DNA of 64,000 bases from Nanobdellota archaeon (GCA_038046385.1 JBBSWH010000011.1:56731-120730); one strand, 5' to 3'; counted from the first letter of the stretch, positions 18,588 through 40,295 are shown. Notes: generated from the sequence alone by a model not told the origin. Numbers and translations are program-made.

Positions 18588-19099
18588 TTTATTTTTGCGT
18601 ATAAGTAAGCATCAATATATTTGCCGTCTTTGCTGCAATGTTTTCTCAACAGCCCTTCTTTTTTGTATCCGTTTTTTACCAGCACCCTGGAAGATTTTTT
18701 GTTGAATGAAAACACAGTTGCATAAATTCTGATTAATTTTAAATTATTTAAGCCATAATCTGTCACAAGATTTACCGCTTTTGTTATTATCCCTTTATTC
18801 CAATATTTTTTCCCCAGCCAGTATCCCATTTCTGCTTTATGGCATTCAATATGGTTGAATCCTATTCCCCCAACTACTTTTCCATTTATGTCGATTGCGA
18901 AATTAATCTCTTTTTTATTTTTTAATTTTGCTAATTTTAAATTATAATTTATCCACCATTTAGCGTCTTTTTTGGTAAATGGATGTGGAATCCTGCACGT
19001 ATGCCTGTAAATATCAAAATCATTGACATTTTCTTTTAAAGATTCTTCATCGCCTTTTTTATAAAGCCTGATTACAAACCCTTTTCCTTTCAGTTTCAT
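18584..19099 (-). CDS. GNAT-family N-acetyltransferase (RimJ/RimL-like)
   Basis: ~170 aa; GNAT-like core 'WLGKKYWNKGIITKAV'; overlaps neighbours by 4 nt. Confidence 0.6.
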   Translation of the reverse strand: MKLKGKGFVIRLYKKGDEESLKENVNDFDIYRHTCRIPHPFTKKDAKWWINYNLKLAKLKNKKEINFAIDINGKVVGGIGFNHIECHKAEMGYWLGKKYWNKGIITKAVNLVTDYGLNNLKLIRIYATVFSFNKKSSRVLVKNGYKKEGLLRKHCSKDGKYIDAYLYAKIK

Positions 19100-20868
19100 T
19101 TTCTTCTGATAAAATTGCTTAATGTAATCTGCTCATCTTTGTTTGCGCTTAAGTAAATGACCTGGCCTTCCTTGCTGCCCGACCTGTAAATAGAGATGCC
19201 TTTGCATCCAAGCTCATGCGCCATCATGAATATTTTTTCAATATCTTCAACTTTGGCATCTTTTGGCAGCGTAACTGTTTTTGAAATTCCATTGTCTACA
19301 TACGTTTGGAATGCAGCCTGCATTTTTACGTGCCATTCAGCTTCAATGTCGCTTCCAATAACAAAAATGTTTCTTATTTCTTCCGGAATCTCCTTTATAT
19401 TTTTTATAGACCCTTCCCTGTTTATTTTTTCAATTATTTCTTCTGTATAAATGCCGGAATCAGCAAGCTTTTCCTTCAGCTGCCTGTTGAAATAAATCAG
19501 GGTCTTTCCTTCTGCCGTGCTCCTGTTATAGCTTAATGCAAACAGCGGCTCGATTCCGCTTGACACATCTGCAATAATGCTTATAGTGCCGGTTGGCGCG
19601 ATTGTTGTTCTTGTTGCATTCCTTAATACAGCGTGATTTCCCTTAAAATGCCTGCTTTTTTTATTGTAAACGCTTTGATTCCATGCAGGAAAAGCGCCCC
19701 TTTGCCCAGCAATAGCTACAGAAGAATTATCTGCTTCATTTGAAATGAATTTCATAACCTTTTCAGCAGTTTTTAATGCTTCATCTGAATCATAAGCGAT
19801 GTTCATCTTGATAAGCATGTCTGCAAACCCCATCACTCCGAGGCCAATTTTTCTGTTTTGCTCTACGAATTTTCTGTTTGCCTCAAGAGGATAATTGCAC
19901 ATGTCAATAACATTATCAAGGAAATGCACAGCAGAACGGACAACTCCCTTTAGCCTTTCAAAGTCTACAGTCCCATCTTTGACAAAGTTGCTTAAATTAA
20001 TGCTTCCCAGGTTGCAGGATTCATAAGGCAATAATGGCTGTTCTCCGCATGAGTCTGTTGATTCAATTGTTCCAAGTGCTGGCGTTGGATTGCTTTTGTT
20101 GATTGTATCAATAAAAATAACTCCGGGGTCTCCGTTAAGCCATGCATGTTCGCATAATATCCTGAAAATCCTGCTAGCGCTTTCTTTTTTTACAAACTTT
20201 TTGGTTCTGTAATTTATTAGATTGTAATCTTTGTCTTTGGCGACTGCATTAAGGAATTTGTCAGTGACTGCCAATGAAATGTTGAAATTTGTAAGTGTGT
20301 TCTCGCGGCTTTTTATTGTTATGAATTCCTCAACATCAGGATGATCCACATTCAGGATGCCCATGTTTGCTCCCCTTAAAGTGCCTCCCAATTTAATCTG
20401 GCCGGTTGCTGCGTCAAATACTTTCATGAATGATACTGGACCGGATGTGAATCCTGCGCTTTCAATTATGTCGCCTTTTGGCCTTAAGTTAGAGAAGTTA
20501 AATCCGGTTCCTGCGCCTGTTTTGTGGATTAAAGCAGAATCATGCAGCGTCATGAATATAGAGCTTATGTCATCTTCTATCGGAAGCACAAAGCACCCGG
20601 CCAGCTGCTGCAGTTTTCTGCCTGCATTTATCAGGGTCGGGGAATTAGGAAGAAAATCAAGCGAAGCCATGAGGTTGTAGAACTCTTCTTCAGCCCTCTT
20701 TATGTTTTTTTTCTGGGATTTGTATTTTGCATCAGCCGATGCTACGTTTTTTGCAACCCTCCTGAACAGTTTTTCAGGCGTTTCAATTATCCTTCCCTTA
20801 TCATCGCGCTTCAGGTATCTCTGCTCAAGAATCATCAATGCATTCTTCGATAAATGTGAGTGCTTCAT
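19096..20868 (-). CDS. nrdJ: class II (adenosylcobalamin-dependent) ribonucleotide reductase, short form without ATP-cone or C-terminal Zn ribbon
   Basis: '[14 protein letters not shown]', 'NSPTLINAG', '[23 protein letters not shown]' and '[10 protein letters not shown]' (catalytic Cys/Asn) align with the long NrdJ at 23378-25966. Confidence 0.85.
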
Positions 20869-23377: not shown

Positions 23378-25966
23378 CTACATGCAAAGGCCCCATCCGC
23401 ATCCGGGACAGTGCAGGCATCCTTCTTTTATCTCAACTTTTGCGCCGCATTCAGGGCAGTTTTTGATTGTAGTCTTTGTCATTGGAGCAGATACTTTGTC
23501 TGCAAACACAAGGTTTCCGGATTCCTTAACAGCAGCCTGCTGTACTGGAATTGCTTGTGGAGCTGGCTTTGCTTCTTTCTCCTCCCTTGCTTTTGGCGCA
23601 ACCAATACCTGATCCTTGATGCTGGAATCCCTGAACACTGTGACATCTTTGCATCCAATCTTGTAAGCCAGTATGAAACTTTGCCTCATATCTTCAAGAG
23701 TTGCATCTGCAGGGAAATTATTTGTCTTTGAGATGCTTGAGTCTACCCATCTTTGGAAAGATGCCAATGCCATTATATGCTCTTCAGGAGTTATGTCCAT
23801 TGCAGTCACAAGCGCTTTTTTTATGTGCTCTGGCACATAATCGAGGCTTTGTATGCTTCCCTTGTTTTGGTTAATATCTTCCATTACTTTATCGTTCAGC
23901 AAGCCTTCTTCTCTTAAGACCTTTTCTCCTGCAGGGTCAATGTAGAAGAATTTTCCAACAGCAACGTTTTTTTCATAAACAAGGCTGTAGACCGGTTCCA
24001 TTCCAGATGAACAGCCAGCTATCATTGAGATGCTTCCGGTTGGCGCAATTATTGTAGTGTATCCATTTCTTATGCCATACTTCTTCATGTCGTTGCTTAT
24101 CTTTTCCCAGTTTAATTTTGCATTCCCTCTGTATGGGCCGCTTATTGGATGCCTGCCCTGCTTGTAGAAGCTCTTGTCATAGTAAGGCAAGTTCCCTCTT
24201 GCTTTCGCAAGCTCTATGCTTTCAACCTTGCTCCAGTAAGCAACAAACTCCATAAGCTGTTCCATAAAATTCCTTCCTTCCTCTGAATTGAACGGAAGCT
24301 TTAGTTCATAAAGCAGATTTGCAACTCCCATAACTCCAAGGCCAACTTTCCTTGTCGAAAGGCTCATCTCTTCTATAGCTTTCAATGGGAAATTGTTAAC
24401 ATCAATCACATTATCAAGGAACCTTGTTGAGCTCATTACAACTTCTTTCAATGCATCCCAGTCAACTGTCGTTTGGCCATGCTCATCCATTCTTGCAAAT
24501 GCCCATACATTGATTGATCCAAGGTTGCATGGCTCATTCGGATACAAAAGAACTTCTCCGCAAGGGTTTGTTGTTACGATTGGCCCAAGATGCTCAAAGA
24601 ACGGGTTGTATTCGTTTACTTTATCGTAGAAAATAACTCCCGGTTCAGCAGATTCCCATGCCTGATAAACAATTTTGTCAAACAATACTCTTGGGTTAAC
24701 TGTCTTTACAATCTTGCCGTCTTTCGGATTAACCAATGGGTACGGCTCGTTCTTTTCATAGTGTTCCCAGAAATCTGGCATTATCAAGACGCTTATGTTA
24801 AAGTTCCTCAATGCTTTGTTTCCGTCTTTTGCTGTTATGAACTTCTCAATGTCAGGATGATTTGAGTTAAGGATGCCCATATTGGCGCCTCTTCTTATAC
24901 CCCCTTGTTTGATGACTTCTGTCATTGTATCAAACAGCCTCATGAAGCTTAATGGGCCTGATGCTGTTCCGCCTGTTGAAGAAACAAAATCTCCCTCTGG
25001 CCTTAATTTTGAAAAATTGTAGCCCATTCCTCCGCCAGCTTTGAATACTATTGCTGTATTCTTTAGAGTCTCCATTATGCCATCTATACTATCTGGCACA
25101 TCAAGAACAAAGCATGCGCTTCCCATTCCCAATGGATTTCCAAAATTTGCAATTGCAGGAGTATTCGGCATGAATAGCTTCTGTGTCATAAGATTGTACA
25201 GTTCATCCAGATTTTTTTCATAATTGTCAAAGTCGCCTTTCTTAATCATGTCAAAAAATTTGCTCCACGTTACTTTCATCTGCTTGTTTCTGTTAAAGCG
25301 GTCATACATCCTCTTCACAGCTTCAAGATGGTATCTGTTCAGCTTGTACTTTCCAACACCATACTGGTTTTCATGCACAGCTGGCCTAAACTCTTCAACA
25401 ATGTTGGTCTGCTGCTGGCCGCTTATGTCAAAAACTTTTGAATCATAGAATAAATCAGGAAGTGCAGCATGCACAGCTACCCTTGTGAAAAGCTGTTTTG
25501 GAGTTTCAATCAGCTTGCCTGTTGCATCCCTTCTCAAGTATCTTGCTTTTAGGACTCTTAGAGCATTAACATCAAACTTCTTGTCAACTTCATCCACTTC
25601 TTCCTTTTCAAGCACAATCTGCTTTTCTTTCCTAACAGCAGCTCTCTGTTCCCTATAAAGTATGAATGCTTTTGCTGTTGTTGCATGCCCTTCTTCCATA
25701 AGCACTTTTTCAACAGTGTCCTGGATTTCTTCAACAGAAGGGGTTGTTTTTAATGCTTCCAGCCTTTGCATGACTATATTACTAAGCTGCTGCGCTAATT
25801 TTCGGTCTTTTCCGCCAACTGACTGGGCCGCTTTCCATATTACATTTGTAATTTTTGACTGATTGAATGAAACTACGCTACCGTCCCTTTTCTTTATCCT
25901 AGAAATTTTTGATTCCATATTTATCTGACCCTCCTTCGGCAAAATCTTATTTTCGCTTATTTTCAC
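23378..25966 (-). CDS. nrdJ: class II (adenosylcobalamin-dependent) ribonucleotide reductase, long form with N-terminal ATP-cone and C-terminal Cys4 Zn ribbon
   Basis: ATP-cone 'ISRIKKRDGSVVSFNQSKI'; 'NPCGEV', 'EPCNLGSINV'; C-terminal 'CPECGAKVEIKEGCLHCPGCG'. Confidence 0.9.
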   Translation of the reverse strand: MKISENKILPKEGQINMESKISRIKKRDGSVVSFNQSKITNVIWKAAQSVGGKDRKLAQQLSNIVMQRLEALKTTPSVEEIQDTVEKVLMEEGHATTAKAFILYREQRAAVRKEKQIVLEKEEVDEVDKKFDVNALRVLKARYLRRDATGKLIETPKQLFTRVAVHAALPDLFYDSKVFDISGQQQTNIVEEFRPAVHENQYGVGKYKLNRYHLEAVKRMYDRFNRNKQMKVTWSKFFDMIKKGDFDNYEKNLDELYNLMTQKLFMPNTPAIANFGNPLGMGSACFVLDVPDSIDGIMETLKNTAIVFKAGGGMGYNFSKLRPEGDFVSSTGGTASGPLSFMRLFDTMTEVIKQGGIRRGANMGILNSNHPDIEKFITAKDGNKALRNFNISVLIMPDFWEHYEKNEPYPLVNPKDGKIVKTVNPRVLFDKIVYQAWESAEPGVIFYDKVNEYNPFFEHLGPIVTTNPCGEVLLYPNEPCNLGSINVWAFARMDEHGQTTVDWDALKEVVMSSTRFLDNVIDVNNFPLKAIEEMSLSTRKVGLGVMGVANLLYELKLPFNSEEGRNFMEQLMEFVAYWSKVESIELAKARGNLPYYDKSFYKQGRHPISGPYRGNAKLNWEKISNDMKKYGIRNGYTTIIAPTGSISMIAGCSSGMEPVYSLVYEKNVAVGKFFYIDPAGEKVLREEGLLNDKVMEDINQNKGSIQSLDYVPEHIKKALVTAMDITPEEHIMALASFQRWVDSSISKTNNFPADATLEDMRQSFILAYKIGCKDVTVFRDSSIKDQVLVAPKAREEKEAKPAPQAIPVQQAAVKESGNLVFADKVSAPMTKTTIKNCPECGAKVEIKEGCLHCPGCGWGLCM

Positions 25967-26532: not shown

Positions 26533-27084
26533 TTGTGCTTGACAATGAGAACAATAAACGCAAAAGGACATGAATTTATATCGCATCCGGTTAGGGACTC
26601 CTATGACAGAAGAGCGCAGCAGTTCAAAAACAAGATAATTTTGGCATTGGGAAAAATTGGATTGACAGAAGATGATGTTGAAATAGATCTTGAGCCTTCG
26701 GCTGTTAAATCAGCGCCTGCATCTGCAGCGTGGTACATGGAAGGGCATTATATGCATTACAGCCACAATTCACCAAGAAAATACGTTGAAAACCTTTCTG
26801 TTGTGCTAAAAGTGATTGAGCTTGAAGTTGATGCACTTATTCATGGGCGCAAGACAATACGGGATTTCATCACAGAATTCTCTGAAGACAAAGAAGTCGA
26901 AAAGCTAAGGAAAGAAGCGCGCGAGGTGCTTGGGATTGGCGAAGATGTGCATGACCTTAACTTAATTGATGCAAACTACAAAGCGCTTGCCAAGAAACAC
27001 CATCCTGACATGCCTGATGGAGATATTGTAAAGTTCAAAGAAATCAACCACGCGCATAAGATACTAAAGAGAGAGTTGCAGTAA
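26533..27084 (+). CDS. J-domain (DnaJ-like) protein, 183 aa; alternative start at 26545
   Basis: C-terminal J-domain 'YKALAKKHHPDMPDGDIVKFKEINHAHKIL' with an HPD motif. Confidence 0.7.
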   Translation: MCLTMRTINAKGHEFISHPVRDSYDRRAQQFKNKIILALGKIGLTEDDVEIDLEPSAVKSAPASAAWYMEGHYMHYSHNSPRKYVENLSVVLKVIELEVDALIHGRKTIRDFITEFSEDKEVEKLRKEAREVLGIGEDVHDLNLIDANYKALAKKHHPDMPDGDIVKFKEINHAHKILKRELQ

Positions 27085-27229: not shown

Positions 27230-27586
27230 ATGGACGAAAATTTATCTGTTGAACAAAGGATAGCAAGATTCTTAGAAGCAAACGATATTACTATTATTCC
27301 CGTAAATGGGGGCGATGGAATAGAAATATTAGAGTTTGTACAACATATGACTGGCGGGACGACAAGAGAATTAGGTGGAATATTCTATAATCGTGACGTA
27401 GGAATGACACAAGCAGCCGATGTTCCTCGTCTAGGGCAGTGCCTTCAACTCCCAGAATTTGTTGCTGAAGTTAGAAGGCCAATGTCACAACTTTTAGCAC
27501 AAGTCAAGGGTGACTTTTATGCTGATCAATTAGGACCAATACATGATGCTTGTGACAAAGTAGAAGCAAAGTATGCAGGAAGATAA
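27230..27586 (+). CDS. hypothetical protein (118 aa), atypical codon usage and SD motif
   Basis: 'aggtga' 7 nt upstream of the ATG; CGT/CGA Arg codons, whereas backbone genes use AGA and lack SD. Confidence 0.5.
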   Translation: MDENLSVEQRIARFLEANDITIIPVNGGDGIEILEFVQHMTGGTTRELGGIFYNRDVGMTQAADVPRLGQCLQLPEFVAEVRRPMSQLLAQVKGDFYADQLGPIHDACDKVEAKYAGR

Positions 27587-27703
27587 GGCACCTGTTTTTT
27601 CTTATTATTTTCAAATTTATATGAAATTCTGCTTTATTTTAATTCAGCTGCCAATTACAATTAACATTTTTTTGATGCAGTTAAATCAGCCTAACTATTA
27701 GAA

Positions 27704-29239
27704 TCACTCAACAATCTTCCCTAACTTGCTTAACTCCTCCCCCTCAAACATCCTTATAATCACGTCTTTCAGTTCAGTAATCTTAACGCGAGCTTGTTCT
27801 GTTGTATCTCTAGACCTTATCGTAACAGTCTCATCTTCCAAACCTTCAAAATCTATCGTAATACAGGCATAAGCTCCAATCTCATCCATTCTTGCGTACC
27901 TTCTTCCGATTGAGCCGGAAACGTCAAAAGAGCAAGTCCATTCTTTCTTGAGCATGTTATAGACTTCTCTTGCCTTGTCAACAACTTCTTTCTTGTTAGA
28001 CACAAGTGGAAACACTCCTAATTTGACAGGCGCTAATTTAGGATGAAGTTTTAAAACAACATTCTCCCTTGACTTGTCAAAATGATAAGCGTCAAACAAG
28101 AACACAAGGAAAGCCCTTTCAACACCCATCGAAGGCTCGCAGATTACATGCGGAATTATCTTTTTCTTTGTTTCCTCATCAAATATTGAAAGATCAGTTT
28201 TTGAATGCTCAATATGCTGCTTCAAATCAAAATCCGTTCTATTACTTAACCCTTGTAATTCTTTCCACCCAAAAGGAAATTCGTATTCCAAATCCCAAGT
28301 ATCAAGAGCATAATGCGATAATTCATCATGAACATGCTGCCTTATCCTGAAATGATCCGGTTTGACTCCAAGATTTACAAACCACTGGTGCATTGATGCC
28401 AGCCAGTAAGCGTGCCACTTTGTTTTTATTATCTTCTTAGACAAGCATTCTTTGATTGACATTTTTTCATGTTTCTTGCCATGACCCTGCATCTCTGCAG
28501 AATAAACATTCATTTCATGGTCAATTACATCATCAATGAAAGCGCATTCGTTTTGCTTTTCCGGATGAACAAAATATTCTATCTCCATCTGCTCAAATTC
28601 TCTCATTCTAAAGAGAAAATCTCTAGGAGAAATTTCATTTCTGAAGGATTTTCCGATTTGCGCAATTCCAAACGGAAGCTTCATCCGTGCATTTTCCTGC
28701 ACCAGTTTGAAATTTGCAAAAATAACCTGTGCAGTTTCAGGACGAAGATAAGCAACAGAACCGGAAACAGGACCGACATTCGTGGAGAACATCAAATTGA
28801 ACATCTTTGGCTCTCCAAGTTCTGCATTGCCGCACTTTGTACACCTTAATTTGTGCTCTTTTATTTTTGAATCCATATCTGAAATAGACATTCCTGCTGT
28901 CTCTATCTTCAGCTTGTCCTCTATCAAAGTGTCTGCCCTAAAACGTGCATTGCACTTCTTGCAGTCAACCAGCACATCTGTGAATCCATCAACGTGACCG
29001 GAAGCTTTCCACACAGTCGGATGGTTTACAATACTTCCGTCAATTCCGGCAATATCTTCCCTTTCCTGAACAAAAATCTTCCACCACTGCTGCTTGATGT
29101 TGTTTTTTAATTCAACGCCCAGATGACCAAAATCATAGAATCCCGATATGCCGCCGTAAATCTCAGAGTTTGGATACACAAATCCCTTTCTCTTGCAAAA
29201 AACAGCCATATCATCAATTGTAAGCTTTTGCTTTTCCAT
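27704..29239 (-). CDS. glyS: glycyl-tRNA synthetase (archaeal/eukaryotic alpha2 type)
   Basis: 'FVYPNSEIYGGISGFYDFGHLG' class II motif 1/2; insertion Zn-like 'CKKCN...CTKCG'. Confidence 0.9.
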   Translation of the reverse strand: MEKQKLTIDDMAVFCKRKGFVYPNSEIYGGISGFYDFGHLGVELKNNIKQQWWKIFVQEREDIAGIDGSIVNHPTVWKASGHVDGFTDVLVDCKKCNARFRADTLIEDKLKIETAGMSISDMDSKIKEHKLRCTKCGNAELGEPKMFNLMFSTNVGPVSGSVAYLRPETAQVIFANFKLVQENARMKLPFGIAQIGKSFRNEISPRDFLFRMREFEQMEIEYFVHPEKQNECAFIDDVIDHEMNVYSAEMQGHGKKHEKMSIKECLSKKIIKTKWHAYWLASMHQWFVNLGVKPDHFRIRQHVHDELSHYALDTWDLEYEFPFGWKELQGLSNRTDFDLKQHIEHSKTDLSIFDEETKKKIIPHVICEPSMGVERAFLVFLFDAYHFDKSRENVVLKLHPKLAPVKLGVFPLVSNKKEVVDKAREVYNMLKKEWTCSFDVSGSIGRRYARMDEIGAYACITIDFEGLEDETVTIRSRDTTEQARVKITELKDVIIRMFEGEELSKLGKIVE

Positions 29240-29278
29240 AATATAGAAAAATAATTAATTGGCTTATAAAATTTTGCT

Positions 29279-30208
29279 TTAAACAGCGCTTTTCTCATGA
29301 TTCAATTCTCTGTAAGACATCCAGAAGAAATAACCCACTATTGTAAAAGTAACGACTGGCGAAAACCATGAAGGAATGTGCTTCCCGAAGCTGTCAAGAA
29401 GCATTATCATTCCCAAGGCGAATATCGAGTACATCGCCCCGTTCTTCAGGTATTTGTATTTTTTGACATTTTCTATGTTGCTTACTGTTAATTGTCTTAC
29501 AACCAAAGCGCCTATCCCATTTCCTATTAATATCAGCGGTATTGACAAAGTAAATGCAAAAGCGCCAAGTATCCCGTCTATTGAAAATGTTGCGTCTATA
29601 ACTTCAAGATAAAGTATCTTGCTTAAATCACTCATCTTGTTGCCTTCAATCATCCTTTTCTCAGCCTGCTCTGCATTCTCCTTGAAGCCGTGCGTTATGA
29701 AAAAAGCAGTCGAGCCGACAACAGCGCCAAATGCCATGAAAGGATTTTTTTCCATTGAAAACCACACAATTGCTGTCAAGATTACAGAAACAACTGCAAA
29801 AAACCACACTCCCTGTTTGTGAATAAATCTTTCTCCCTGCAGCCCATAATGCTTTTCCTCAAGGAAAATCCAGTGGAAAAACAAGAATACCAGGAATGTG
29901 CCTCCTCCTGTCAGTAATATGGGAGACGACGCTTCTATGACCTCGGCTATATGAGGATCTCCGGAAAATGAGGCTGTAAACGCTTCTATCGGGCCTATCC
30001 CTGGCGTGCTTAGCCATACAATAAGCCAAGGCAACACCCCTCTGACAAGAAAAACTGCAATCAGTATTCCCCAGAGAAGAAACCATTTTCTTCCTTTTTT
30101 GGACATTGTGCCGAGAACTTCAGCGTTTATTATTGCGTTGTCCACGCTGATTATTACTTCAAAGAGGATTAATCCTCCAACTATAAATAATGCCGAAAAA
30201 AGGTCCAT
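29279..30208 (-). CDS. TerC/DUF475-family integral membrane protein
   Basis: 'ISVDNAIINAEVLG' motif; multiple TM helices. Confidence 0.65.
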   Translation of the reverse strand: MDLFSALFIVGGLILFEVIISVDNAIINAEVLGTMSKKGRKWFLLWGILIAVFLVRGVLPWLIVWLSTPGIGPIEAFTASFSGDPHIAEVIEASSPILLTGGGTFLVFLFFHWIFLEEKHYGLQGERFIHKQGVWFFAVVSVILTAIVWFSMEKNPFMAFGAVVGSTAFFITHGFKENAEQAEKRMIEGNKMSDLSKILYLEVIDATFSIDGILGAFAFTLSIPLILIGNGIGALVVRQLTVSNIENVKKYKYLKNGAMYSIFALGMIMLLDSFGKHIPSWFSPVVTFTIVGYFFWMSYRELNHEKSAV

Positions 30209-30286
30209 TTTTACATAATAATTATTTTAATTTAAAAGTGTTTTGTTTTCAATAACTTAATAAAACCGTAAATCTTCCTTTCTAAT

Positions 30287-31501
30287 ATGCATCCTTTTAC
30301 TCATAAATACAGGCCAAAGAATACAAAAGATATAATTGGCCAGGAAGAGAATTTAACCCAGTTAAGGGATTTTATTTTAAATTTCACAAAACACAAAAAG
30401 AATTCTGCATTTGTTTACGGTCCAAGCGGAACAGGAAAAACCTCATCGGTTTATGCGATTGCATCTGACCTGGGCCTGGAAATAATTGAAGTCAACGCAT
30501 CTGATTTCAGAAATGCAGATCAGGTAAACCAGAAAGTTGGCAACGCAATAAAGCAGCAAAGCCTTTTTGCAAAAAGCAAATTAATTCTTGTTGACGAAGT
30601 TGACGGGCTATCAGGCCATCAGGACAGGGGAGGAATTCAGGCAATCATAAAACTGATAGAAGAATCAAAATATCCTATAATTCTCACTGCAACAAACCCT
30701 TTTGACAACAAATTTTCATCATTAAGATCAAAATCCCTGATGGTTGAATTCAAAGGCCATGATTACATGTCAATCTTTGCAATTCTAAAAAACATTTGCG
30801 AAAAGGAAAAAATAAAGCATGATGATGAAACTTTAAAATCACTTTCAAGAAGATCAGGCGGAGACGCACGCGCTGCAATCAACGATTTGCAGAACATTGC
30901 AAATGAAAAAAAAGAGCTGGTTAAGGAAAGCATTTTGGAATTAGAGGACAGGCAGAAGACCGAAAACATAATGACTGCACTGAATAAAATTTTTAAGACA
31001 ACAGATCTGAAAATTGCAATTTCTGCGTTTGACAATGTTGACGAAGATTTAGACGAGCAATTATTGTGGATAGACGAGAATCTGCCGAAAGAATACACAA
31101 AAGCAAAAGACCTTGCAGAAGCATACGATAAATTAAGCAAAGCCGATGTCTTCAGCAGAAGGATCAGGAGATGGCAGCACTGGAGATTTCTTGTTTACAT
31201 CAATGCTTTGATAACCGCTGGAATCGCTTCTTCAAAAGATGAGCGCTACAAGGAGCTTGTTTCATATAAACCAACAGGAAGAATCTTGAAATTGTGGTGG
31301 GCAAAGCAGAAGGCCGCAAAGAAAAAAAGCATTGCAGAGAAGATTGGGACAAAGACGCACGCGTCAACAAAAGACACTTTGAAAAGCACAATGCCTTACC
31401 TTCCAGTAATGTTCAGAAACAAGGAAATGAAATCTCAGCTGATACATGAGCTTGAGCTTGACGACGAAGAAGTTGAATGGCTTGAGAAGCAGATAAAATG
31501 A
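30287..31501 (+). CDS. rfcL: replication factor C large subunit
   Basis: 'KYRPKNTKDIIGQEE' RFC box II; Walker A 'GPSGTGKTS'; 'LILVDEVD'; SRC-like arginine region. Confidence 0.82.
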   Translation: MHPFTHKYRPKNTKDIIGQEENLTQLRDFILNFTKHKKNSAFVYGPSGTGKTSSVYAIASDLGLEIIEVNASDFRNADQVNQKVGNAIKQQSLFAKSKLILVDEVDGLSGHQDRGGIQAIIKLIEESKYPIILTATNPFDNKFSSLRSKSLMVEFKGHDYMSIFAILKNICEKEKIKHDDETLKSLSRRSGGDARAAINDLQNIANEKKELVKESILELEDRQKTENIMTALNKIFKTTDLKIAISAFDNVDEDLDEQLLWIDENLPKEYTKAKDLAEAYDKLSKADVFSRRIRRWQHWRFLVYINALITAGIASSKDERYKELVSYKPTGRILKLWWAKQKAAKKKSIAEKIGTKTHASTKDTLKSTMPYLPVMFRNKEMKSQLIHELELDDEEVEWLEKQIK

Positions 31502-31833
31502 AATTCATAACATCGGAAGAGCTTGCAAATTCAAAAGATAAAAATTTATTTCTTTTGGACATAAGGGACGATGACACATATTCTGATGGCCACATTGAAA
31601 ACTCTTTGCAGATTGACGTCTACATTGAGTTAAAGTTAGGAAACATAAAAAAAGTAAAAGAAAAGTTTTCACACCTTCCAAAAAACAAGACAATAATCAC
31701 AATTTGCAACGCAGGAATCACAGCGCAAAAAGCTTCTGCAGTTCTTGAAGAAATGGGATACAAAACAAAAGTCCTTGAAGGCGGGATGATGGCATGGGGC
31801 GGGAATAATCCTGTAAAGACCGGGTTTAAGTGA
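31498..31833 (+). CDS. rhodanese-domain sulfurtransferase
   Basis: active-site loop 'ICNAGITAQKA' with Cys; 111 aa; ATGA overlap with rfcL. Confidence 0.75.
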   Translation: MKFITSEELANSKDKNLFLLDIRDDDTYSDGHIENSLQIDVYIELKLGNIKKVKEKFSHLPKNKTIITICNAGITAQKASAVLEEMGYKTKVLEGGMMAWGGNNPVKTGFK

Positions 31834-31884
31834 AGTTTTGGATAAGCTAATTAAAGAAATAATCAAATCTGGATTGTTGATACA

Positions 31885-32199
31885 TCAAGCAATAATGCTT
31901 TTAGATAATGCCCAATTTATAGTTTTTAAAAGTGATAATCTCTGTGCTTCAGCGGCGCTAAGGGCTGTTGGATTAGACTCGCTCTCATTAACAGCGCGCT
32001 CAAGTTCTCCAAAATCAACTTCAGTGCCGGGCTTTATATCAAAAACAAACATTAAGGTTCTTTGTTCAGGAGTATACTTTCTCAATAAATGCCCAAATTT
32101 TATAACATAATCCATATCCTGGGACCTCCCGTATGGTGATGGTGCATCTGATGTTGTTACATTTGGCGTTGTCATACCTTCAGGGTAATCATATTTCAT
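31885..32199 (-). CDS. hypothetical protein (104 aa) with atypical composition, in the intergenic gap upstream of valS
   Basis: ORF; GC-richer than flanks; no family motif. Confidence 0.35.
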   Translation of the reverse strand: MKYDYPEGMTTPNVTTSDAPSPYGRSQDMDYVIKFGHLLRKYTPEQRTLMFVFDIKPGTEVDFGELERAVNESESNPTALSAAEAQRLSLLKTINWALSKSIIA

Positions 32200-32258
32200 T
32201 TATAAATCTAACTTTTAGAAACAATAAAATTAAAAACCGCCAATGTAAACTTCTGTTT

Positions 32259-34679
32259 ATGGAACTTTCAAAAAACTATAATCCGAAGGAATCAGAATTA
32301 AAATGGCTGGAGTTCTGGGAAAGGGAGAAAATATATTCTTTTAACCCGGACAGTGATGCAGAAATATTCTCAATAGACACTCCGCCGCCAACAGTTTCCG
32401 GCAAGATGCACATAGGACATTCGTTCTCATACTCTCAGCAGGATTTCATCGCAAGATTCCACAGAATGCGCGGAAAGAACATTTTCTATCCCTTTGGAAC
32501 AGATGACAACGGATTGGCTACAGAAAGAATGATAGAGAAAATGAAAAATGTAAAAGGCCAGTTCATGAAAAGAAAGGAATTTGTTGACTTATGCCTTAAA
32601 ACACTCGAAGAGATAAGGCCAGATTTTGTTATTGACTGGAAAAGAATCGGAATAAGCGCAGACTTCAACATCTTTTATACAACAATCAATGAGCATTCCC
32701 AAAAAACATCCCAGAATTCTTTTATTGACCTGTACAAAAAAAATAGAATTTACAGAAAAAAAGCCCCTATAATGTTTTGCCCAAACTGCATGACTGCAAT
32801 CGCCCAGGTCGAGATGAAAGATTCAGAAAGAGAATCAAATCTTGTTTACATAAAAGCAGATGTTGAAGGCACAAATGAGCATTTGGTTTTTGCAACAACA
32901 AGGCCGGAATTGATTTACGGCTGCGTCGGTGTTTCAGTTCATCCGGAAGACAAAAGATATTCTCATCTTATCGGAAAAAAAGTAAAAATTCCTTTAATCA
33001 GCAGAAGCGTTGAGTTGATTCCGGATGAAATGACAGATATGGAATACGGAAGCGGTGTTGTTTATTACTGCACTTATGGAGGTGTTGACTGCATAGACTG
33101 GATGATGCGCCATCCGAAAATAAGCCCTATTGATATAATGGGAACAGACGGAAGGTACAACGAGCATTCTGGAACAATAAAGGGGATGAAGAGCGGAGAA
33201 GCAAGAAAAAAAATAATTGAAGAGCTGGAAAAAGATGGCTCATTGGTCAAGCTGGAAAAAATAAAGCACACTGTTAATGTTCACGAAAGATGCGATACAG
33301 ACATAGAGTATGTATCGACGTGGCAATGGTACATAAGATACCTCGATCTTAAAGGGGATTTTATAAAAAAAGGCCGCGAGATAAAATGGTATCCCGACCA
33401 TATGCGTTCAAGATATGAGAACTGGATTAGCGGCTTAAAGTGGGACTGGAACATCTCAAGGCAGAGGCATTTTGGAGTACCGATACCGGTGTGGTTCTGT
33501 TCAAAGTGCAGCGAGATAAATGTTGCTGACGAAAAACAATTGCCAGTTGATCCGCTAGTTGACAAACCGATTCATAAGTGCAAGTGCGGCTCAGATGAAT
33601 TTATTCCTGAAAAGGATGTTCTCGACACATGGGCAACTTCATCTTTGACTCCGGACATTGCGATAGGCCTGTTTGACAAGAAAACACATTCAAAACTGTC
33701 TCCAATGAGCTTAAGGCCGCAGGCGCATGATATAATAACATTCTGGCTGTTCAATACTGTTGTTAAGAGTTATTTCCACCATAATGATGTTCCATGGAAA
33801 AACATAATGATCTCAGGCTGGGCTCTTGATCCGCACGGAAAGAAAATGAGCAAGAGCAAGGGAAATACTGTCGATCCAAGAGATGTTATTGGCAAGTATT
33901 CGGCAGATGCATTAAGGTTCTGGGCAGCTGGCTCAAGATTAGGCGACGATATGCCGTTCCAGGAAAAAGACCTTGTGACAGGCTCAAAGTTTACAACAAA
34001 AATATGGAATGCTTCAAAGTTTGCATTCATGCACCTTGTAGACTATAATCTTGAGAAGCCTGCAAAGCTTGAAGTAATGGACAGATGGATATTATCAAAA
34101 TTAAGCAAGATTGTAAAAGATGTTACAGAAAATTTTGAAAACTATGAATATTCGCATACAAAACTGGCGACAGAAACATTCTTCTGGCATACCTTCTGCG
34201 ACAACTATCTTGAACTTGTAAAAGACCGTTTTTATAACACCGAAACAAGGAGCAAAGACGAGAAAATATCTGCCCAGTACGGATTATATAATTCTCTTCT
34301 TACAGTAATAAAAATTATGGCGCCAATAATGCCGTTCATAACAGAAGAGCTTTATCAGACTTACTTCAGAAAGCACGATGGATCAAAAAGCGTTCATATC
34401 TCAAAATGGCCTGTGCTTGACATGGTTGACGAGCACGCAGAGCACATTGGTGATTTTGTGGTTGAAGTTGTAGAGTTCGCAAGAAAGAAAAAAACAGAAA
34501 AGCAGGTTTCATTAAAAACACCGATAAAGAAACTGACAATCAAAGCAAGCATAGAGGAAACAGATTTTGAAACGGTTGAAGCAGACATAAAAGCTGCAAC
34601 ATCCTCTGAAAACATCGTGTTTGAGCCGATGCGCGGCCACAATCCTGAGCACAAGACCGAGATAGAAATTGAGTTTTGA
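32259..34679 (+). CDS. valS: valyl-tRNA synthetase (class I; LeuRS not fully excluded)
   Basis: 'TPPPTVSGKMHIGH' (ValRS-type PPP-x-V-x-G HIGH), 'FGTDDNGLATE', CP1 'ATTRPELIYG', 'KMSKSKGN'; the ORF start at 32133 is probably upstream read-through and Met 32259 is the likely start. Confidence 0.7.
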   Translation: MELSKNYNPKESELKWLEFWEREKIYSFNPDSDAEIFSIDTPPPTVSGKMHIGHSFSYSQQDFIARFHRMRGKNIFYPFGTDDNGLATERMIEKMKNVKGQFMKRKEFVDLCLKTLEEIRPDFVIDWKRIGISADFNIFYTTINEHSQKTSQNSFIDLYKKNRIYRKKAPIMFCPNCMTAIAQVEMKDSERESNLVYIKADVEGTNEHLVFATTRPELIYGCVGVSVHPEDKRYSHLIGKKVKIPLISRSVELIPDEMTDMEYGSGVVYYCTYGGVDCIDWMMRHPKISPIDIMGTDGRYNEHSGTIKGMKSGEARKKIIEELEKDGSLVKLEKIKHTVNVHERCDTDIEYVSTWQWYIRYLDLKGDFIKKGREIKWYPDHMRSRYENWISGLKWDWNISRQRHFGVPIPVWFCSKCSEINVADEKQLPVDPLVDKPIHKCKCGSDEFIPEKDVLDTWATSSLTPDIAIGLFDKKTHSKLSPMSLRPQAHDIITFWLFNTVVKSYFHHNDVPWKNIMISGWALDPHGKKMSKSKGNTVDPRDVIGKYSADALRFWAAGSRLGDDMPFQEKDLVTGSKFTTKIWNASKFAFMHLVDYNLEKPAKLEVMDRWILSKLSKIVKDVTENFENYEYSHTKLATETFFWHTFCDNYLELVKDRFYNTETRSKDEKISAQYGLYNSLLTVIKIMAPIMPFITEELYQTYFRKHDGSKSVHISKWPVLDMVDEHAEHIGDFVVEVVEFARKKKTEKQVSLKTPIKKLTIKASIEETDFETVEADIKAATSSENIVFEPMRGHNPEHKTEIEIEF

Positions 34680-34728
34680 AATATTTCGACAGGTTTAAAA
34701 ATAAGATTCTATTCCTACTATTGGGTGG

Positions 34729-35247
34729 TTGATAATGAGTTTAGACAGTTTAACAGGAAGAGAATTTGAAAAACAGGAAAGAAGAAGGACAAAACGTGCA
34801 AGTGATAAAGCTACACGTCCTAGCCAAATACTTTTTGGCGACCAAACTACAGAAGTTATATACGGTAAAAGATTCTCGAGTGCTAACGGCACATTTAATC
34901 CAAATAAACGTCAAATTCATAAGGTGGACGGGTTAGTTGAAGCTGTAAAAAGCCCAAACCCGAAATGGATATACGCAGCGGAAATCTTACAGGATTTAGG
35001 TAAGTACAAAACATCAACATTTCCAAGCACTTCTTTTTATGAAGGGTTTTTGGTGCAAATGGGTGCTATTGTTTCTCAAAGGTTGCCGGTTGTCGTTTAC
35101 ATAGAAAGGAATGAAAGCAAATTACCAATTGGATATTCAATAAGACCATACCAACCGCATCAAAAAGCTGTAGCTCCAGTTATTGTTGAGGCTAGTGAAG
35201 GTGAACATCAGAAACCACCTTATGTACGCGAATCACGTCGTCGTTAA
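34729..35247 (+). CDS. hypothetical protein (172 aa), atypical codon usage (CGT-rich), SD 'ggtgg'
   Basis: ORF; ends '...cgtcgtcgttaa'; SD-like motif upstream. Confidence 0.5.
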   Translation: MIMSLDSLTGREFEKQERRRTKRASDKATRPSQILFGDQTTEVIYGKRFSSANGTFNPNKRQIHKVDGLVEAVKSPNPKWIYAAEILQDLGKYKTSTFPSTSFYEGFLVQMGAIVSQRLPVVVYIERNESKLPIGYSIRPYQPHQKAVAPVIVEASEGEHQKPPYVRESRRR

Positions 35248-35379
35248 ACAACATCATTGAGGACTTCAGTTGGAGTATGGTTAAGACAAAATTAGATTGT
35301 ATGATTCAGACTTTAAAAAAGTTTAAATATACTTAACCTAAATTATATTTTTTATATAACTTTTAGTGGAGGGTTTAAA

Positions 35380-35904
35380 ATGAGTTTAAAATTAATTTTG
35401 ACAAGAAATGAGAATATGAAGCCAAAGCCTGCAAGAACAAATTCCGGAATTCATGGGAATACTGTGTTGCAGTTAGAAGAAATAGGCGGTGTGGCTTCTT
35501 CTGGAGTTCCAACTAGTTTTAATGAAGATAGAATATTAGCAGAACACAGGGAATTAAACAGGATGGCTCCTAGTTTGTTTAAGAGACATCAATTGTCAGA
35601 TGTTGTTTACCTATTGGATGAGTACGGAATTGATGCAGTTATAGAAGGCTACCATGCATCACAAATAACTGGCTTTCCATTGGAATATGAAGTAATGATG
35701 TGCTCAACCCAGCCAGCAGACGATGGAAAAGATTTAATGGACCCGGACATTTTAGAAATAATGGTTCAAGACCAAAGCAGAGGACCACTAAGCCCAACAC
35801 CATGGGAGATATTTAGTCAAGGTGCTCATCGAATAGTCAAAAGAAAATCTTTGGTAGGACTCGGATTCGAGTATGGCTCAAAGCATCCTTTGGATTTGAC
35901 ATAA
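35380..35904 (+). CDS. hypothetical protein (174 aa), atypical codon usage, strong SD 'ggaggg'
   Basis: 'tagtggagggtttaaaATG'; no family motif. Confidence 0.5.
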   Translation: MSLKLILTRNENMKPKPARTNSGIHGNTVLQLEEIGGVASSGVPTSFNEDRILAEHRELNRMAPSLFKRHQLSDVVYLLDEYGIDAVIEGYHASQITGFPLEYEVMMCSTQPADDGKDLMDPDILEIMVQDQSRGPLSPTPWEIFSQGAHRIVKRKSLVGLGFEYGSKHPLDLT

Positions 35905-35940
35905 TTTTTTAATTTAAAAAAATCCAAATCAAACACTTCT

Positions 35941-36267
35941 CTAAGCAGCAATATCTTCAAGGCCAAGAGTGTATTTTACTATTACTCGTTCTGCTATGTA
36001 TTCTCCATTCCAGCGGAAAAAATCCGTATCACTTCTTAATCTAAGCTCACCTACTCTTGCAAATTCCTTGTTCAAATAATAATCAAAAGCCCTCATTTCA
36101 GTTTCAGATCTCTCTGGCCCGTCATTTCTTGCAATATTATTTGACCAAGTTCTGAAAGAGGCAAGGTACTTAGGAATATAATGCCTCAATCCGTTTTCAT
36201 CAAGACTCTGTGGTCTTGTAAAATCCCCAAAAAGAGTACTGGGACTTGTTAATACTGGTTCTGCCAT
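35941..36267 (-). CDS. hypothetical protein (108 aa), SD 'gaaggtggg' upstream
   Basis: ORF abutting the cysS start by 1 nt; SD motif. Confidence 0.45.
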   Translation of the reverse strand: MAEPVLTSPSTLFGDFTRPQSLDENGLRHYIPKYLASFRTWSNNIARNDGPERSETEMRAFDYYLNKEFARVGELRLRSDTDFFRWNGEYIAERVIVKYTLGLEDIAA

Positions 36268-36268
36268 T

Positions 36269-37663
36269 CTAACCCACCTTCCATCTTACACCCTCTTTTG
36301 TATCCTCAAGGATAACCCCTTTGCTTTTTAAAGTTTCCCTTATCTCATCCGCCTTTTTGAAGTTTTTCTCTTTTCGCGCTTTCTCTCTTTCATCAATCAT
36401 CTTTTGGACTTCAGAGTCGACTTCTTTTTGCTCTTCAAGAATCCCAAGGACTTTGTCAAAATCCTGCATTAATCCCATAATCTTATCAGCATCGTTCTTG
36501 CCAATCTTTCCTTCCATCATCAGCGTATTTATTTCTTTTACAAAATCAAAAACATGCGACAATGCTCCGCTTATGTTGATGTCATCATCCATTTCTTTCT
36601 CAAACAGCTTCTTTGTTTTGTCAATTAATTTTACAATATCTTTATTTTCATCATTATTTTTTATCTCATTCAATTTCAGCATAAAATCATTTAATCTTTG
36701 CACAGCGCTTTCAGACGCTTTTACAGCATCTTCTGTAAAATTCAATTGCATCCTGTAGTTTGCAGACAAAAGAAGGTACCTTATCGAGCTTGCCTTGTAC
36801 CCTTTTGCTAGCAAATCCCTTAAAGTGTAAAAATTGCCAAGAGACTTTGACATTTTCTTCCCTTCAACAAGAAGGTGCTCGTTATGTACCCAGTAGTTTG
36901 CAAAATGCTCGTGAGTATAAGCCTCGCTTTGCGCAATCTCATTCTCGTGATGCGGAAACACAAGATCTATTCCTCCGGCGTGTATGTCAAAATGGTTTCC
37001 AAGATGTTTTATTGACATTGCACTGCATTCTATATGCCATCCCGGCCTTCCTTTGCCTATTTCAGTGTCCCAGAAAACATTTCCATCATCTTTATCGTAC
37101 GATTTCCATAATGCAAAATCTTTTGCCTCTTCTTTTTCGTAAGAATCATGTTTTACCCTTGCGCCTTCCATCAAATCTGCAACTTTTGTTTTGGACAATT
37201 TTCCATAACCCTTGAATTTAGAAATATTGTAATAAACGCTTCCGTCATCGCTTTTGTAAGCAATTCCGTCTTCAAGCATTTTTTTTATCATGGAAACAAT
37301 TTCTTCGATATAATCAGTTGCTCTCGGAAAAACATCTGCTTTTGCTATGTTCAGCGCTTCCAAATCCTCGAAGAATGCCTTTTCATACCTTGAAGTATAC
37401 TCTTTCAATGAAATTTTTTCTTTGTTCGCGCCCTTTATTGTCTTGTCATCAACATCGGTTATGTTCATCACATGCTTGATATGGTATCCGGAGTACTTCA
37501 AATATCGCTTAAGAATATCACTGCATATGTAAGCCCTAAAGTTGCCGATGTGGGCATAATCATAAACAGTCGGGCCACAAGTATACATACCAACCATCTT
37601 GTCCTTTATCGGCTTGAAGGTTTCTTTCTTCCTTGTGAGGGTATTGTAAATTTTCAATGCCAT
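36269..37663 (-). CDS. cysS: cysteinyl-tRNA synthetase
   Basis: 'MYTCGPTVYDYAHIGNFRAY' (HIGH), Zn-binding Cys/His, 'KMSKSLGN'. Confidence 0.92.
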   Translation of the reverse strand: MALKIYNTLTRKKETFKPIKDKMVGMYTCGPTVYDYAHIGNFRAYICSDILKRYLKYSGYHIKHVMNITDVDDKTIKGANKEKISLKEYTSRYEKAFFEDLEALNIAKADVFPRATDYIEEIVSMIKKMLEDGIAYKSDDGSVYYNISKFKGYGKLSKTKVADLMEGARVKHDSYEKEEAKDFALWKSYDKDDGNVFWDTEIGKGRPGWHIECSAMSIKHLGNHFDIHAGGIDLVFPHHENEIAQSEAYTHEHFANYWVHNEHLLVEGKKMSKSLGNFYTLRDLLAKGYKASSIRYLLLSANYRMQLNFTEDAVKASESAVQRLNDFMLKLNEIKNNDENKDIVKLIDKTKKLFEKEMDDDINISGALSHVFDFVKEINTLMMEGKIGKNDADKIMGLMQDFDKVLGILEEQKEVDSEVQKMIDEREKARKEKNFKKADEIRETLKSKGVILEDTKEGVRWKVG

Positions 37664-37695: not shown

Positions 37696-37989
37696 TTATG
37701 ATACTTGGTGCACTTCTGCAAGATAATGCGGCTTTGAACCCCTAAATAGCTGCTCAGCCAATACAACTACATTATAATCCCTGCCGCCAGAAACTACTCT
37801 GTGTATTCCTGGCATTGGATTGGCAGATTCTATTGCTCCTAAAATATCTGACAAAGAAATGCCGGTATTTCTTGACATCTCATTATTTGAGTTGAATGCA
37901 ATTCCAGATGAATGAAAAACATTCCCTCCTGCATCCATGTAGCCTAATATTTGGTCATGGCATCCTATCATCATGTAACTTTCGCACAT
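37696..37989 (-). CDS. hypothetical protein (97 aa); possibly a gene fragment
   Basis: ORF only; slightly GC-richer. Confidence 0.3.
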   Translation of the reverse strand: MCESYMMIGCHDQILGYMDAGGNVFHSSGIAFNSNNEMSRNTGISLSDILGAIESANPMPGIHRVVSGGRDYNVVVLAEQLFRGSKPHYLAEVHQVS

Positions 37990-38041: not shown

Positions 38042-38157
38042 AGCGAGGGATGGGACTCGAACCCATGATAAAGCGGGAATTGCGCACGTCATCGCCGATT
38101 TCTCGGCTCATATGGCTGCTTTGCAGCCGCTCCCCTTAGCCGCTTGGGCACCCTCGC
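38042..38157 (-). tRNA. tRNA-Cys(GCA) containing a ~40-nt intron in the anticodon loop
   Basis: Minus-strand read: acceptor GCGAGGG/CCCTCGC; D-arm CCC..GGG with a GG loop; anticodon stem AGCGG/CCGCT with loop C-U-GCA-A; intron pairing with the anticodon region (GGCTG/CAGCC, BHB-like); T-arm ATGGG-TTCGAGT-CCCAT; discriminator U73, the tRNA-Cys identity element; lies next to cysS. Confidence 0.7.
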
Positions 38158-38600
38158 AAATGTGAGAACTATCTAAAAGCAACAACAACCAAGGTAATAA
38201 TTTATGTTCATAAATCTACTGTGATTGTGCAGGATATTTAAAACTTTAGTTTCATTCATAATTTTACTTGAATTTTGATTCTTCTGTTCTGTTATTAAAA
38301 TCCACGGACATAAGGCTGCTTAAAAAATCACGTTCGCGTTCCGCAGCCTTGTCTAGGTTTATTTTTTGTTCCAATTTTAACACCTCTGGTTTTTTAGAAA
38401 AAAATTAAAATTGGCAATCAGCACATATACCAATTGTGTTTAGGACTAATAATAAGAATTCTCATCCCAAACTTTGTGCATTTTGCCATTTCGATTATAA
38501 TCATTTTTTCGTTCTTTTATTTAAATCTTTTGTTTCTGCTATAACTATTCTTGTATATTCTTATATAAATACTCTATTGTTAATTTTATTCCTATAAGAA

Positions 38601-39895: not shown

Positions 39896-40009
39896 ATGAG
39901 GAATTTTTGTTATTTGATTAGAACATTTAATGCGAACGATGGCAAAATTGCCGTATTTTGGTTTGTTTTTATTTTTCTTTATGCTTTATCTATCCTTAAT
40001 AAATACTAA
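39896..40009 (+). CDS. possible 37-aa hydrophobic micropeptide preceded by a perfect SD 'aaggaggt'
   Basis: 'caaaaaggaggttccATGagg...'; weak, could be chance. Confidence 0.2.
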   Translation: MRNFCYLIRTFNANDGKIAVFWFVFIFLYALSILNKY

Positions 40010-40118: not shown

Positions 40119-40295
40119 ATGAGTATTCAAATAAGAATAACGGTATCGAAAGAGATCAACGAACTTCTAGAAAAAGTATCAAAAAAATTAGGCAAGAAAA
40201 AATCAATGCTTGCCCGTGAGTTAATGGAGCAGAAGCTTTACGATCTTCAGTTAATACAAAAAGAGCTCAACAGCATGGATAAAAATGACAAGTAA
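40119..40295 (+). CDS. ribbon-helix-helix (CopG/MetJ-like) regulator heading giant-protein module 1
   Basis: 'MSIQIRITVSKEINELLEKVSKKLGKKKSMLARELMEQ'; the ORF track starts earlier at 40089. Confidence 0.6.
   Translation: MSIQIRITVSKEINELLEKVSKKLGKKKSMLARELMEQKLYDLQLIQKELNSMDKNDK

Follow-up and report, generated by a model that had tools for sequence, protein, structure and literature searches.

Small genes with Shine-Dalgarno sites in variable gaps between leaderless-type housekeeping genes of a groundwater woesearchaeon

DPANN archaea have small genomes, in which short "hypothetical" proteins make up a large share of the genes. Archaeal genes that are translated from leaderless mRNAs have a TATA box centred about 26 nucleotides (nt) before the start codon and no Shine-Dalgarno (SD) sequence. 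Leaderless and SD-leadered mRNAs coexist in archaea, with SD sequences borne by distal cistrons and by mRNAs with long leaders (PMC7531240). Here we describe six small open reading frames (ORFs), named A to F, in a 64,000-nt stretch of DNA (Nanobdellota archaeon, GCA_038046385.1 JBBSWH010000011.1:56731-120730; hereafter, the window) that comes from a groundwater archaeon of the Woesearchaeota, a DPANN lineage. ORFs A to E had been singled out in an earlier note made from the sequence alone; ORF-F was added because it shares their properties. We favour, with a probability of roughly 0.6, the explanation that the six ORFs are lineage-restricted (Woesearchaeota), fast-evolving accessory genes that occupy high-turnover slots and are translated by SD-led initiation on leadered or polycistronic mRNAs.

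The evidence that carries this explanation begins with the SD sites. An SD was taken to be a match to the 3′ end of the 16S ribosomal RNA (rRNA; core GGAGGUGA) lying 4-9 nt upstream of the start and exceeding chance. Its strength was scored as the duplex energy between positions −20 to −3 and the archaeal 16S tail GAUCACCUCCU, an anti-SD that was assumed, and sites reaching −8 kcal/mol were called strong. Strong sites precede five of the six ORFs (A −8.3, C −10.0, D −9.8, E −10.3 and F −10.1 kcal/mol), always 5-7 nt from the start codon, as against only 2 of the 46 other ORFs of the window (Fisher p=5e-5; p=6e-4 for the five ORFs of the earlier note). Random positions reach −8 in 1.9% of cases. 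The sites are also kept within gene families: in family C (the window and loci L029, L031 and L059), in all three genomes that have family E, and in family F. Across the clade (513 ORFs in 37 loci), strong SD sites occur in 15-18% of variable ORFs versus 4% of widely conserved ones (p=0.002). The assumed anti-SD is corroborated by an invariant GAGGTG before a micro-ORF in 16 aligned genomes, and a native conserved gene, the HhH-GPD glycosylase encoded as a distal cistron at 15893-16558, has an SD as well.

The five housekeeping genes glyS, TerC, rfcL, valS and cysS, together with ORF-B (−1.8), have SD energies between 0.8 and −1.8 kcal/mol and TATA-like boxes at −28 to −31; on this evidence they are probably translated from leaderless mRNAs. 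For the flanking genes considered in the earlier note, the energies are 0.2 to −1.0 kcal/mol. ORF-B would lack an SD because it is a leaderless-type gene with a divergent promoter of its own. Its homologue P0009 and the alignment with L068 and L069 both begin at Met9, so the true start is probably ATG 32175, which gives 96 aa and lies 31 nt after the TATA-like sequence TTTATAAA. Public gene calls place the start of valS at 32259 rather than 32133, and ORF-B therefore does not overlap valS; they place that of ORF-C at ATG 34735 rather than TTG 34729.

This arrangement resembles the dual initiation described for Sulfolobus/Saccharolobus and Haloferax (PMC7531240). As in those archaea, housekeeping genes have no SD and a TATA box 28-31 nt upstream, while downstream or leadered ORFs have GGAGG or GGTGG 5-7 nt before the start, with ORF-E resembling coupled distal cistrons. 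Unlike in those archaea, SD sites in the window are nearly confined to poorly conserved small genes (5/6 vs 2/46), and leaderless status is deduced from sequence. The earlier note had placed its ORFs in the gaps between glyS, rfcL, valS and cysS, had seen SD motifs before those at 27230, 34729 (now 34735), 35380 and 35941, none before that at 31885-32199 and none before the flanking genes, and had offered a "distinct translation regime" as one explanation. All of this is borne out: public gene callers make the same ORF calls, although two starts need revising, the SD sites exceed chance, and the ORFs appear SD-led while the neighbouring aminoacyl-tRNA synthetase and RFC genes look leaderless. 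The contrast is the ordinary archaeal split between SD-led and leaderless genes, and is no proof of foreign origin.

A second line of evidence indicates that the five ORFs and ORF-F are genuine protein genes, poorly conserved ones, as judged from sequence. In all six, GC content falls from the first to the third codon position (GC1>GC2>GC3), and the annotated frame is the best-scoring one on its own strand. For A, B and E, coding status follows from homologues in which the proportion of nonsynonymous differences (pN) is well below that of synonymous differences (pS); this test was confined to these three ORFs, C and F being too diverged. The homologues of ORF-A (P0005-P0008, from metagenomes) are Woesearchaeal and 42-66% identical; pN is 0.38 and pS 0.65 in the comparison with locus L065, and in L067 the homologue lies in the same DnaJ-A-glyS context as in the window. 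An AlphaFold2 (AF2) model of ORF-A from a five-sequence alignment has a predicted local distance difference test score (pLDDT) of 81 and an alpha-beta4-alpha-alpha fold, for which no match was found in PDB or BFVD. The L065 homologue (2876-3265, GCA_030679025.1; 42% identical) sits in a tRNA-ligase cluster between RtcB, accompanied by an uncharacterised 286-aa gene, and archease; it has no SD, and its start lies 3 nt after the upstream stop. ORF-B has a homologue, P0009, that is 60% identical and stands in the same place in L069, divergent from a ValRS that is 85% identical (pN 0.28, pS 0.73). A match of ORF-B to the 2378-aa protein P0010 looks compositional, with a Pro/Asp/Thr-rich repeat, and was rejected by inspection, with no formal test.

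The families of C, E and F are found at fixed positions. Family C lies directly downstream of valS in six relatives (L005, L016, L018, L029, L031 and L059) and is also represented by P0003; its members have 321-407 aa and are 19-30% identical, and the window copy is without their N- and C-terminal parts. A search of a 5.8-billion protein set with the family C profile gave, among the matches listed, only the window protein and one relative. Homologues of ORF-E occupy the corresponding place in two loci, L020 (40% identity) and L068 (71%); in the comparison with L068 the ratio of nonsynonymous to synonymous substitution rates (dN/dS) is 0.30, against 0.05 for valS and cysS. In all three genomes with E, its ATG is separated from the cysS stop by a single A, and an SD lies in the last cysS codons. 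Members of family F occur in L020, L054 and L060, invariably just ahead of cysS and with a GGAGG SD 5-8 nt before the start. Its members in these loci (L020 8478-8771, L054 11607-11948, L060 11724-12074) always begin Met-Cys-Glu and lie between tRNA-Cys and cysS; a cysteine at codon 2 beside cysteine-charging genes may be a coincidence or a regulatory hint. The six ORFs are mutually unrelated, so that paralogy among them was rejected.

The third line of evidence is the turnover of the gaps. Relatives were collected as 58 loci from a ValRS scan, with one genome per species, almost all of them metagenome-assembled genomes (MAGs) of groundwater Woesearchaeota/Nanoarchaeota. ValRS in these loci is 50-78% identical to the window copy, and the gene order glyS-TerC-rfcL-rhodanese-valS-cysS-390aa-68aa-722aa is kept across them, mostly under the label Woesearchaeota. 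The gap between valS and cysS varies from 17 bp to 3 kb and holds at least five unrelated ORF families as well as singletons; a single diverged superfamily filling this gap was rejected, given hhalign probabilities of 6% or less. The closest relative found, L068, has a ValRS that is 91% identical in amino acids and 84.5% in nucleotides, and aligns with the window across the genes and not across the slots. ORF-C is absent from L068, where 4 nt stand in for 634 nt. In the D slot, the body is swapped for unrelated sequence with a 55-aa ORF, behind a 72-nt 5′ block that is 80% identical. In the B slot, the promoter and the MT[TA]PN start are conserved and lead into an unrelated ORF of 150 aa, and the F slot has an unrelated ORF of 133 aa that lacks an SD and abuts cysS; ORF-E is kept. 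The slot ORFs of L068 have no relatives in any other fetched locus. The variable presence of the ORFs that the earlier note had envisaged is thus seen in L068, which lacks C and has other ORFs in the B, D and F slots. Within the organism itself there is no strain polymorphism to analyse: ORF-D and its surroundings have exact copies on contigs from Hainich groundwater (the NCBI copy carries the label Nanoarchaeota), and the four exact-match contigs are 99.98-100% identical.

The variable gaps of relatives hold ordinary enzymes, PIN, HEPN/nucleotidyltransferase, BRO-N and LAGLIDADG genes, and many ORFs with no domain. ORFs of 253-257 aa adjoin cysS and tRNA-Cys in L006 (13969-14730, −) and L023 (14540-15313, −); two LAGLIDADG Pfam matches occur in the variable-gap set with their members unnamed, the L006 ORF being in this set and the L023 ORF not, so that assignment to these ORFs is unconfirmed. 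The gap between TerC and rfcL (window 30208-30287) is a further variable slot: it spans 78 bp in the window, as in L059, and 1.6-3.3 kb in other relatives (L006, L010, L014, L018). Many of the related MAG records (L005, L008, L013, L016, L020 and others) are titled "uncultured Methanosarcinales archaeon"; ValRS and gene order place them in the Woesearchaeota, and the titles look mislabelled.

In this combination of a conserved backbone with variable gap content, the locus resembles flexible genomic islets and their ORFans. The genes are short, domainless and fast-evolving, with relaxed constraint (dN/dS 0.30 vs 0.05) and AT-richer third codon positions. The slots differ from such islets in being tiny (0.3-1.6 kb), in lying between single housekeeping genes without mobility genes, and in that two of them keep the promoter and the opening codons (two to five) while the body is replaced. 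The ORFs are uncharacterised examples of known phenomena, namely the accessory or orphan genes of flexible islets and the SD-led cistrons of archaea.

Table 1. The six ORFs and the neighbouring genes of the window, with positions counted from its first nucleotide
Feature	Position	Strand	Length	Distance from co-oriented upstream gene (nt)	Remarks
ORF-A	27230-27586	+	118 aa	145	Acidic, soluble; SD AGGTGA 6 nt before ATG; follows DnaJ-domain gene
ORF-B	31885-32199 (as listed)	−	104 aa (as listed)		Divergent from valS; no SD
ORF-C	34735-35247	+	170 aa	55 (past valS stop)	Basic, pI 9.9; SD GGGTGG 6 nt before ATG
ORF-D	35380-35904	+	174 aa	132	SD GGAGGG 6 nt before ATG; T6 run after stop; orphan
ORF-E	35941-36267	−	108 aa	1	Distal cistron of cysS; SD AGGTGGG within final cysS codons; cysS stop TAG, single base A, then ATG
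ORF-F	37696-37989	−	97 aa	Follows tRNA-Cys	SD GGAGATGAT 5 nt before ATG; between tRNA-Cys and cysS
Expression block before ORF-D	35314-35385	+			Two TATA-like boxes, SD GGAGGG, ATG AGT
DnaJ-domain gene	26533-27084	+			Co-oriented with ORF-A
glyS (class II GlyRS)	27704-29239	−			Backbone; TATA-like box at −31; no SD
TerC-family gene	29279-30208	−			Backbone; no SD
rfcL (RFC large subunit)	30287-31501	+			Backbone; TATA-like box at −30; no SD
Rhodanese gene	31498-31833	+			Backbone; 4-nt overlap with rfcL
valS	32259-34679	+			Backbone; TATA-like box at −29; no SD
cysS	36269-37663	−			Backbone; TATA-like box at −30; no SD

How these genes may be expressed can be proposed from their arrangement, from which we infer transcript structure, leaderless status and coupling. 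The SD-led initiation of ORFs A, C, D, E and F would follow from their place after genes of the same orientation, on mRNAs that are leadered or polycistronic; the 30S subunit would be recruited through pairing of SD and anti-SD. ORF-C would be co-transcribed after valS, given the short gap between them and the lack of an oligo-T terminator; no oligo-T run was found between the two genes, and T6-T7 runs follow D and E. ORF-A comes after the DnaJ-domain gene, D after C, and F after tRNA-Cys. Proximity of stop and start codons, with an SD in the end of the upstream coding sequence, is the classic arrangement for termination-reinitiation. Translation of ORF-E may be coupled to that of cysS in this manner, as its start lies one base past the stop and its SD inside the end of cysS. 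The housekeeping genes and ORF-B, with starts 28-31 nt after a TATA box, would undergo leaderless translation.

The same positional data raise the possibility that E and C are small accessory proteins partnered with CysRS and ValRS, respectively, and co-expressed with the adjacent synthetase from one mRNA. The stop-A-ATG junction and SD of ORF-E are kept in three genomes, one of which has a CysRS that is only 44% identical, family C invariably comes right after valS, and family F invariably right before cysS, beside tRNA-Cys. Most relatives, however, lack E, C or F, and in some of them valS and cysS are only 17-26 bp apart. The ORFs change in sequence much more quickly than the synthetases do, searches revealed no known domain in them, and their fixed positions may merely follow the synteny of valS and cysS. 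We therefore give a partnership with the synthetases little credence; the only functional leads are the apparent cysS-E coupling, which is conserved, and the fixed placement of C next to valS and of F next to cysS. For the favoured explanation, these positions point to a vertical history: C after valS in six relatives, E and F flanking cysS in L020, E in L068, B in L069 and A in L067.

The earlier note had proposed a foreign origin as well, from a virus, a plasmid or another domain of life, and had cited CGT/CGA arginine codons and an atypical composition. In this proposal the ORFs would be recent gains that retain the donor's SD and codon usage. CGN codons account for 7 of 15 arginines in ORF-C (p=3e-4; background 9.8%), so the claim stands for this ORF. 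It fails for the other four (A 2/8, B 1/5, D 1/9, E 2/11; pooled 6/33, p=0.10), in which AGA/AGG dominate as in the neighbours. An atypical composition is present in another form: third-position GC (GC3) is 0.28 in the six ORFs against 0.36 in the others (Mann-Whitney p=9e-4), and the proteins are Lys-poor and Arg-rich. Clade-wide, GC3 is 0.36 in variable ORFs versus 0.42 in widely conserved ones (513 ORFs, 37 loci). We read the low GC3 and the Lys-poor, Arg-rich composition as the result of weak codon selection and fast evolution, and not as proof of import.

The differences from the neighbours in GC3 and amino acids, the CGT-rich ORF-C, the orphan status of ORF-D and the variable presence of the ORFs among close relatives are what would be expected of imported genes. 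Set against this, the total GC of the ORFs equals that of the genome (0.38-0.40), their SD pairs with the same native anti-SD as that of conserved genes, and every homologue found is Woesearchaeal, mostly at the same chromosomal position. Scans of the six ORFs and of the family members in relatives with Pfam, PHROGs, NCBIfam and PADLOC gave nothing significant, in keeping with the earlier note, in which none of the ORFs had a recognisable domain; PHROG matches numbered zero, and the search for toxin, antitoxin or defence families in PADLOC and Pfam gave no significant match (best, LmuA at E=0.064). When profiles of families A, C, E and F were searched against PDB sequences, all matches were at chance level. 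Scans of viral contigs with A, B and D returned only two matches, both spurious: that in L063 spans 19 residues, and that in L064 falls within a terminase gene and is on the wrong strand. A BFVD fold search with A gave no match either; plasmid collections were not searched. No mobility genes, integrase, attachment or recombination sites or edge repeats were found, the neighbours of the ORFs being housekeeping genes. A tRNA gene, tRNA-Cys, adjoins F, but conserved cysS and valS separate it from the other ORFs. Recent import is, on balance, improbable.

Several observations weigh against the favoured explanation, which places the SD sites in the ordinary archaeal pattern and the ORFs in a mainly vertical history. 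About 16 other co-oriented, non-overlapping downstream genes of the window have no strong SD, the nearest to it being 10062-10904 at −7.3; position alone thus fails to explain the SD sites, which argues that SD is specific to the variable small-gene class. A TATA-like box at −30, the distance typical of leaderless genes, precedes ORF-D as well, and the GGAGGG of D may therefore lie outside the transcript. Lysine makes up 4.3% of residues and arginine 6.8% in this ORF class, versus 9.1% and 3.6% in the others, and clade-wide the arginine share of arginine plus lysine, R/(R+K), is 0.43 in SD-bearing variable ORFs versus 0.29 in conserved genes (p=1e-6); a distinct gene pool as an alternative source would also explain this shared odd composition. 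Slot content is patchy with respect to the ValRS tree, with genomes 85-91% identical in ValRS carrying unrelated ORFs or none, which implies replacement or exchange and not divergence alone. Lastly, ORF-D found only itself among 5.8 billion proteins, in a word-seeded search with no full HMMER scan of the representatives library for D, and a single-sequence AF2 model of it (pLDDT 32) is uninformative, giving no confident fold.

The last of these points raises the question whether some of the ORFs, above all D, arose by chance in intergenic DNA and are not genes. Relatives of ORF-D were found neither in the 58 related loci (phmmer, hhalign) nor in viral contigs, its codon-usage score is low (0.16), and its slot in L068 holds another, 55-aa ORF. 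A reading frame of 174 codons is nevertheless very unlikely to arise by chance at 38% GC, and ORF-D has a strong SD at canonical spacing, a feature of 1.9% of sites, along with GC1>GC2>GC3 and T-rich, terminator-like runs after its stop. Homologues exist for each of the other five ORFs, and chance ORFs are a most improbable explanation. The idea that ORF-D is the missing N-terminal part of family C was rejected, as no similarity between the two was found.

The patchiness and the shared composition bear on another proposal, in which slots next to core genes swap ORF bodies by recombination among Woesearchaeota as portable cassettes; the signature that the ORFs share (SD, low GC3, Arg-rich and Lys-poor) would then mark a circulating gene pool. 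SD-led initiation would suit such cassettes, since it works anywhere in a host transcript, whereas leaderless initiation requires a precisely placed promoter. There is a precedent in integron cassettes, which are promoterless ORFs that have their own ribosome-binding site and are expressed from a resident promoter. The window slots are similar in that small, unrelated ORFs lie behind resident expression signals and their SD-led translation would be independent of context. They differ in that no integrase, attC-like sites, cassette array or shared flanking repeat was found, and the likeness is one of resemblance only. In L068, the bodies of B, D and F are replaced with sharp boundaries, while the promoter, SD and ATG AGT of D and the promoter and MT[TA]PN of B are kept, as cassette exchange would predict. 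In many relatives the ORFs of the valS-cysS slot, though not homologous, have in common an SD, an R/(R+K) of 0.42-0.88 and a GC3 of 0.17-0.36, and the presence of PIN, HEPN/NTP-transferase, BRO-N and LAGLIDADG genes in variable gaps is consistent with exchange. On the other side, slot edges carry no recombination sites, repeats or integrase, and the 5′ block of the D slot, examined as a possible repeated cassette promoter, has no other copy and is unique to the locus. The L068 slot ORFs lack relatives in other loci, so that no shared cassette pool was seen. Moreover, families C, E and F hold one position across distant genomes, and differential loss from a multi-gene ancestor fits the patchiness equally well. 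We regard portable cassettes as unlikely. A related conjecture is that the gaps are expression slots in which the resident promoter, SD and first codons are fixed while unrelated ORF bodies are swapped, by cassette exchange or gene birth that needs no integrase or recognisable recombination sites, feeding a pool, shared across the clade, of small Arg-rich proteins whose genes are SD-led and low in GC3, in an archaeal lineage that depends on hosts; this we think decidedly unlikely. Lineage-restricted accessory genes in high-turnover slots, translated by SD-led initiation, thus remain the explanation that we favour.

Other features of the window were recorded alongside the six ORFs. The gene for tRNA-Cys(GCA), interrupted by a 45-nt intron, is located at 38042-38157 (−), directly upstream of ORF-F and cysS. 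ARAGORN and an Rfam scan of the whole window at gathering threshold both failed to detect it, and only E-value mode revealed it (45.7 bits); among 16 relatives scanned, ARAGORN detected a tRNA-Cys beside cysS in one (L030, no intron), although the sequence is conserved in many of them. The cysS genes of the clade are of two types, 70-76% and 42-46% identical to the window copy, while ValRS of genomes bearing either type (compared in L005, L020 and L023-L028) stays 68-78% identical; the sequences suggest an in-place exchange of cysS for a distant homologue. The cysS of L020 is of the divergent type and is flanked by homologues of E and F.

Two micro-ORFs were also noted. The first, an unannotated ORF of 36 aa (MEQKINLDKAAERERDFLSSLMSVDFNNRTEESKFK) at 38264-38374 (−), is conserved in 17 related loci. 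Its SD, (G)GAGGTG, its TTAAAA spacer and its TTG start are all invariant, and it has a conserved leader that reaches up to about 38450. The frame survives indels, third codon positions are the most variable, and conservation is higher still in the 70 nt upstream than within the coding sequence; searches of Pfam and NCBIfam gave no match. The second, a hydrophobic ORF of 37 aa at 39896-40009 (+), has the strong SD AAGGAGGT (−10.9 kcal/mol) and lies in a divergent region between the 390-aa and 68-aa genes; conservation was sought in the loci that cover this region, and none was found. Further along, a two-gene module is duplicated at 40285-45592 and 49821-58009 (+). The first genes encode 722- and 635-aa proteins that are 27% identical (E 1e-43), and the stop of each overlaps the start of a following gene for a very large protein (1048 and 2094 aa), the large pair being weakly similar at their N termini. 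The 722-, 1048- and 635-aa proteins were scanned and have no Pfam match; the 2094-aa protein was not scanned. The window also encodes two paralogues of the ribonucleotide reductase large subunit at 19096-20868 (−) and 23378-25966 (−), which are 36% identical and 2.5 kb apart, with an ATP-cone in one only.

For the biology of DPANN archaea, the locus shows that short hypothetical genes are real: they have conserved ribosome-binding sites, are under constraint and appear to differ from core genes in their mode of initiation. Such small genes occupy tiny, high-turnover slots inside a rigid housekeeping backbone. In such genomes a strong SD helps to tell true small genes apart from noise; the 36-aa gene found in 17 loci came to light in this way. 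If replacement of slot content proves to be general, it would offer a tractable case of how symbiotic archaea renew their accessory proteome.

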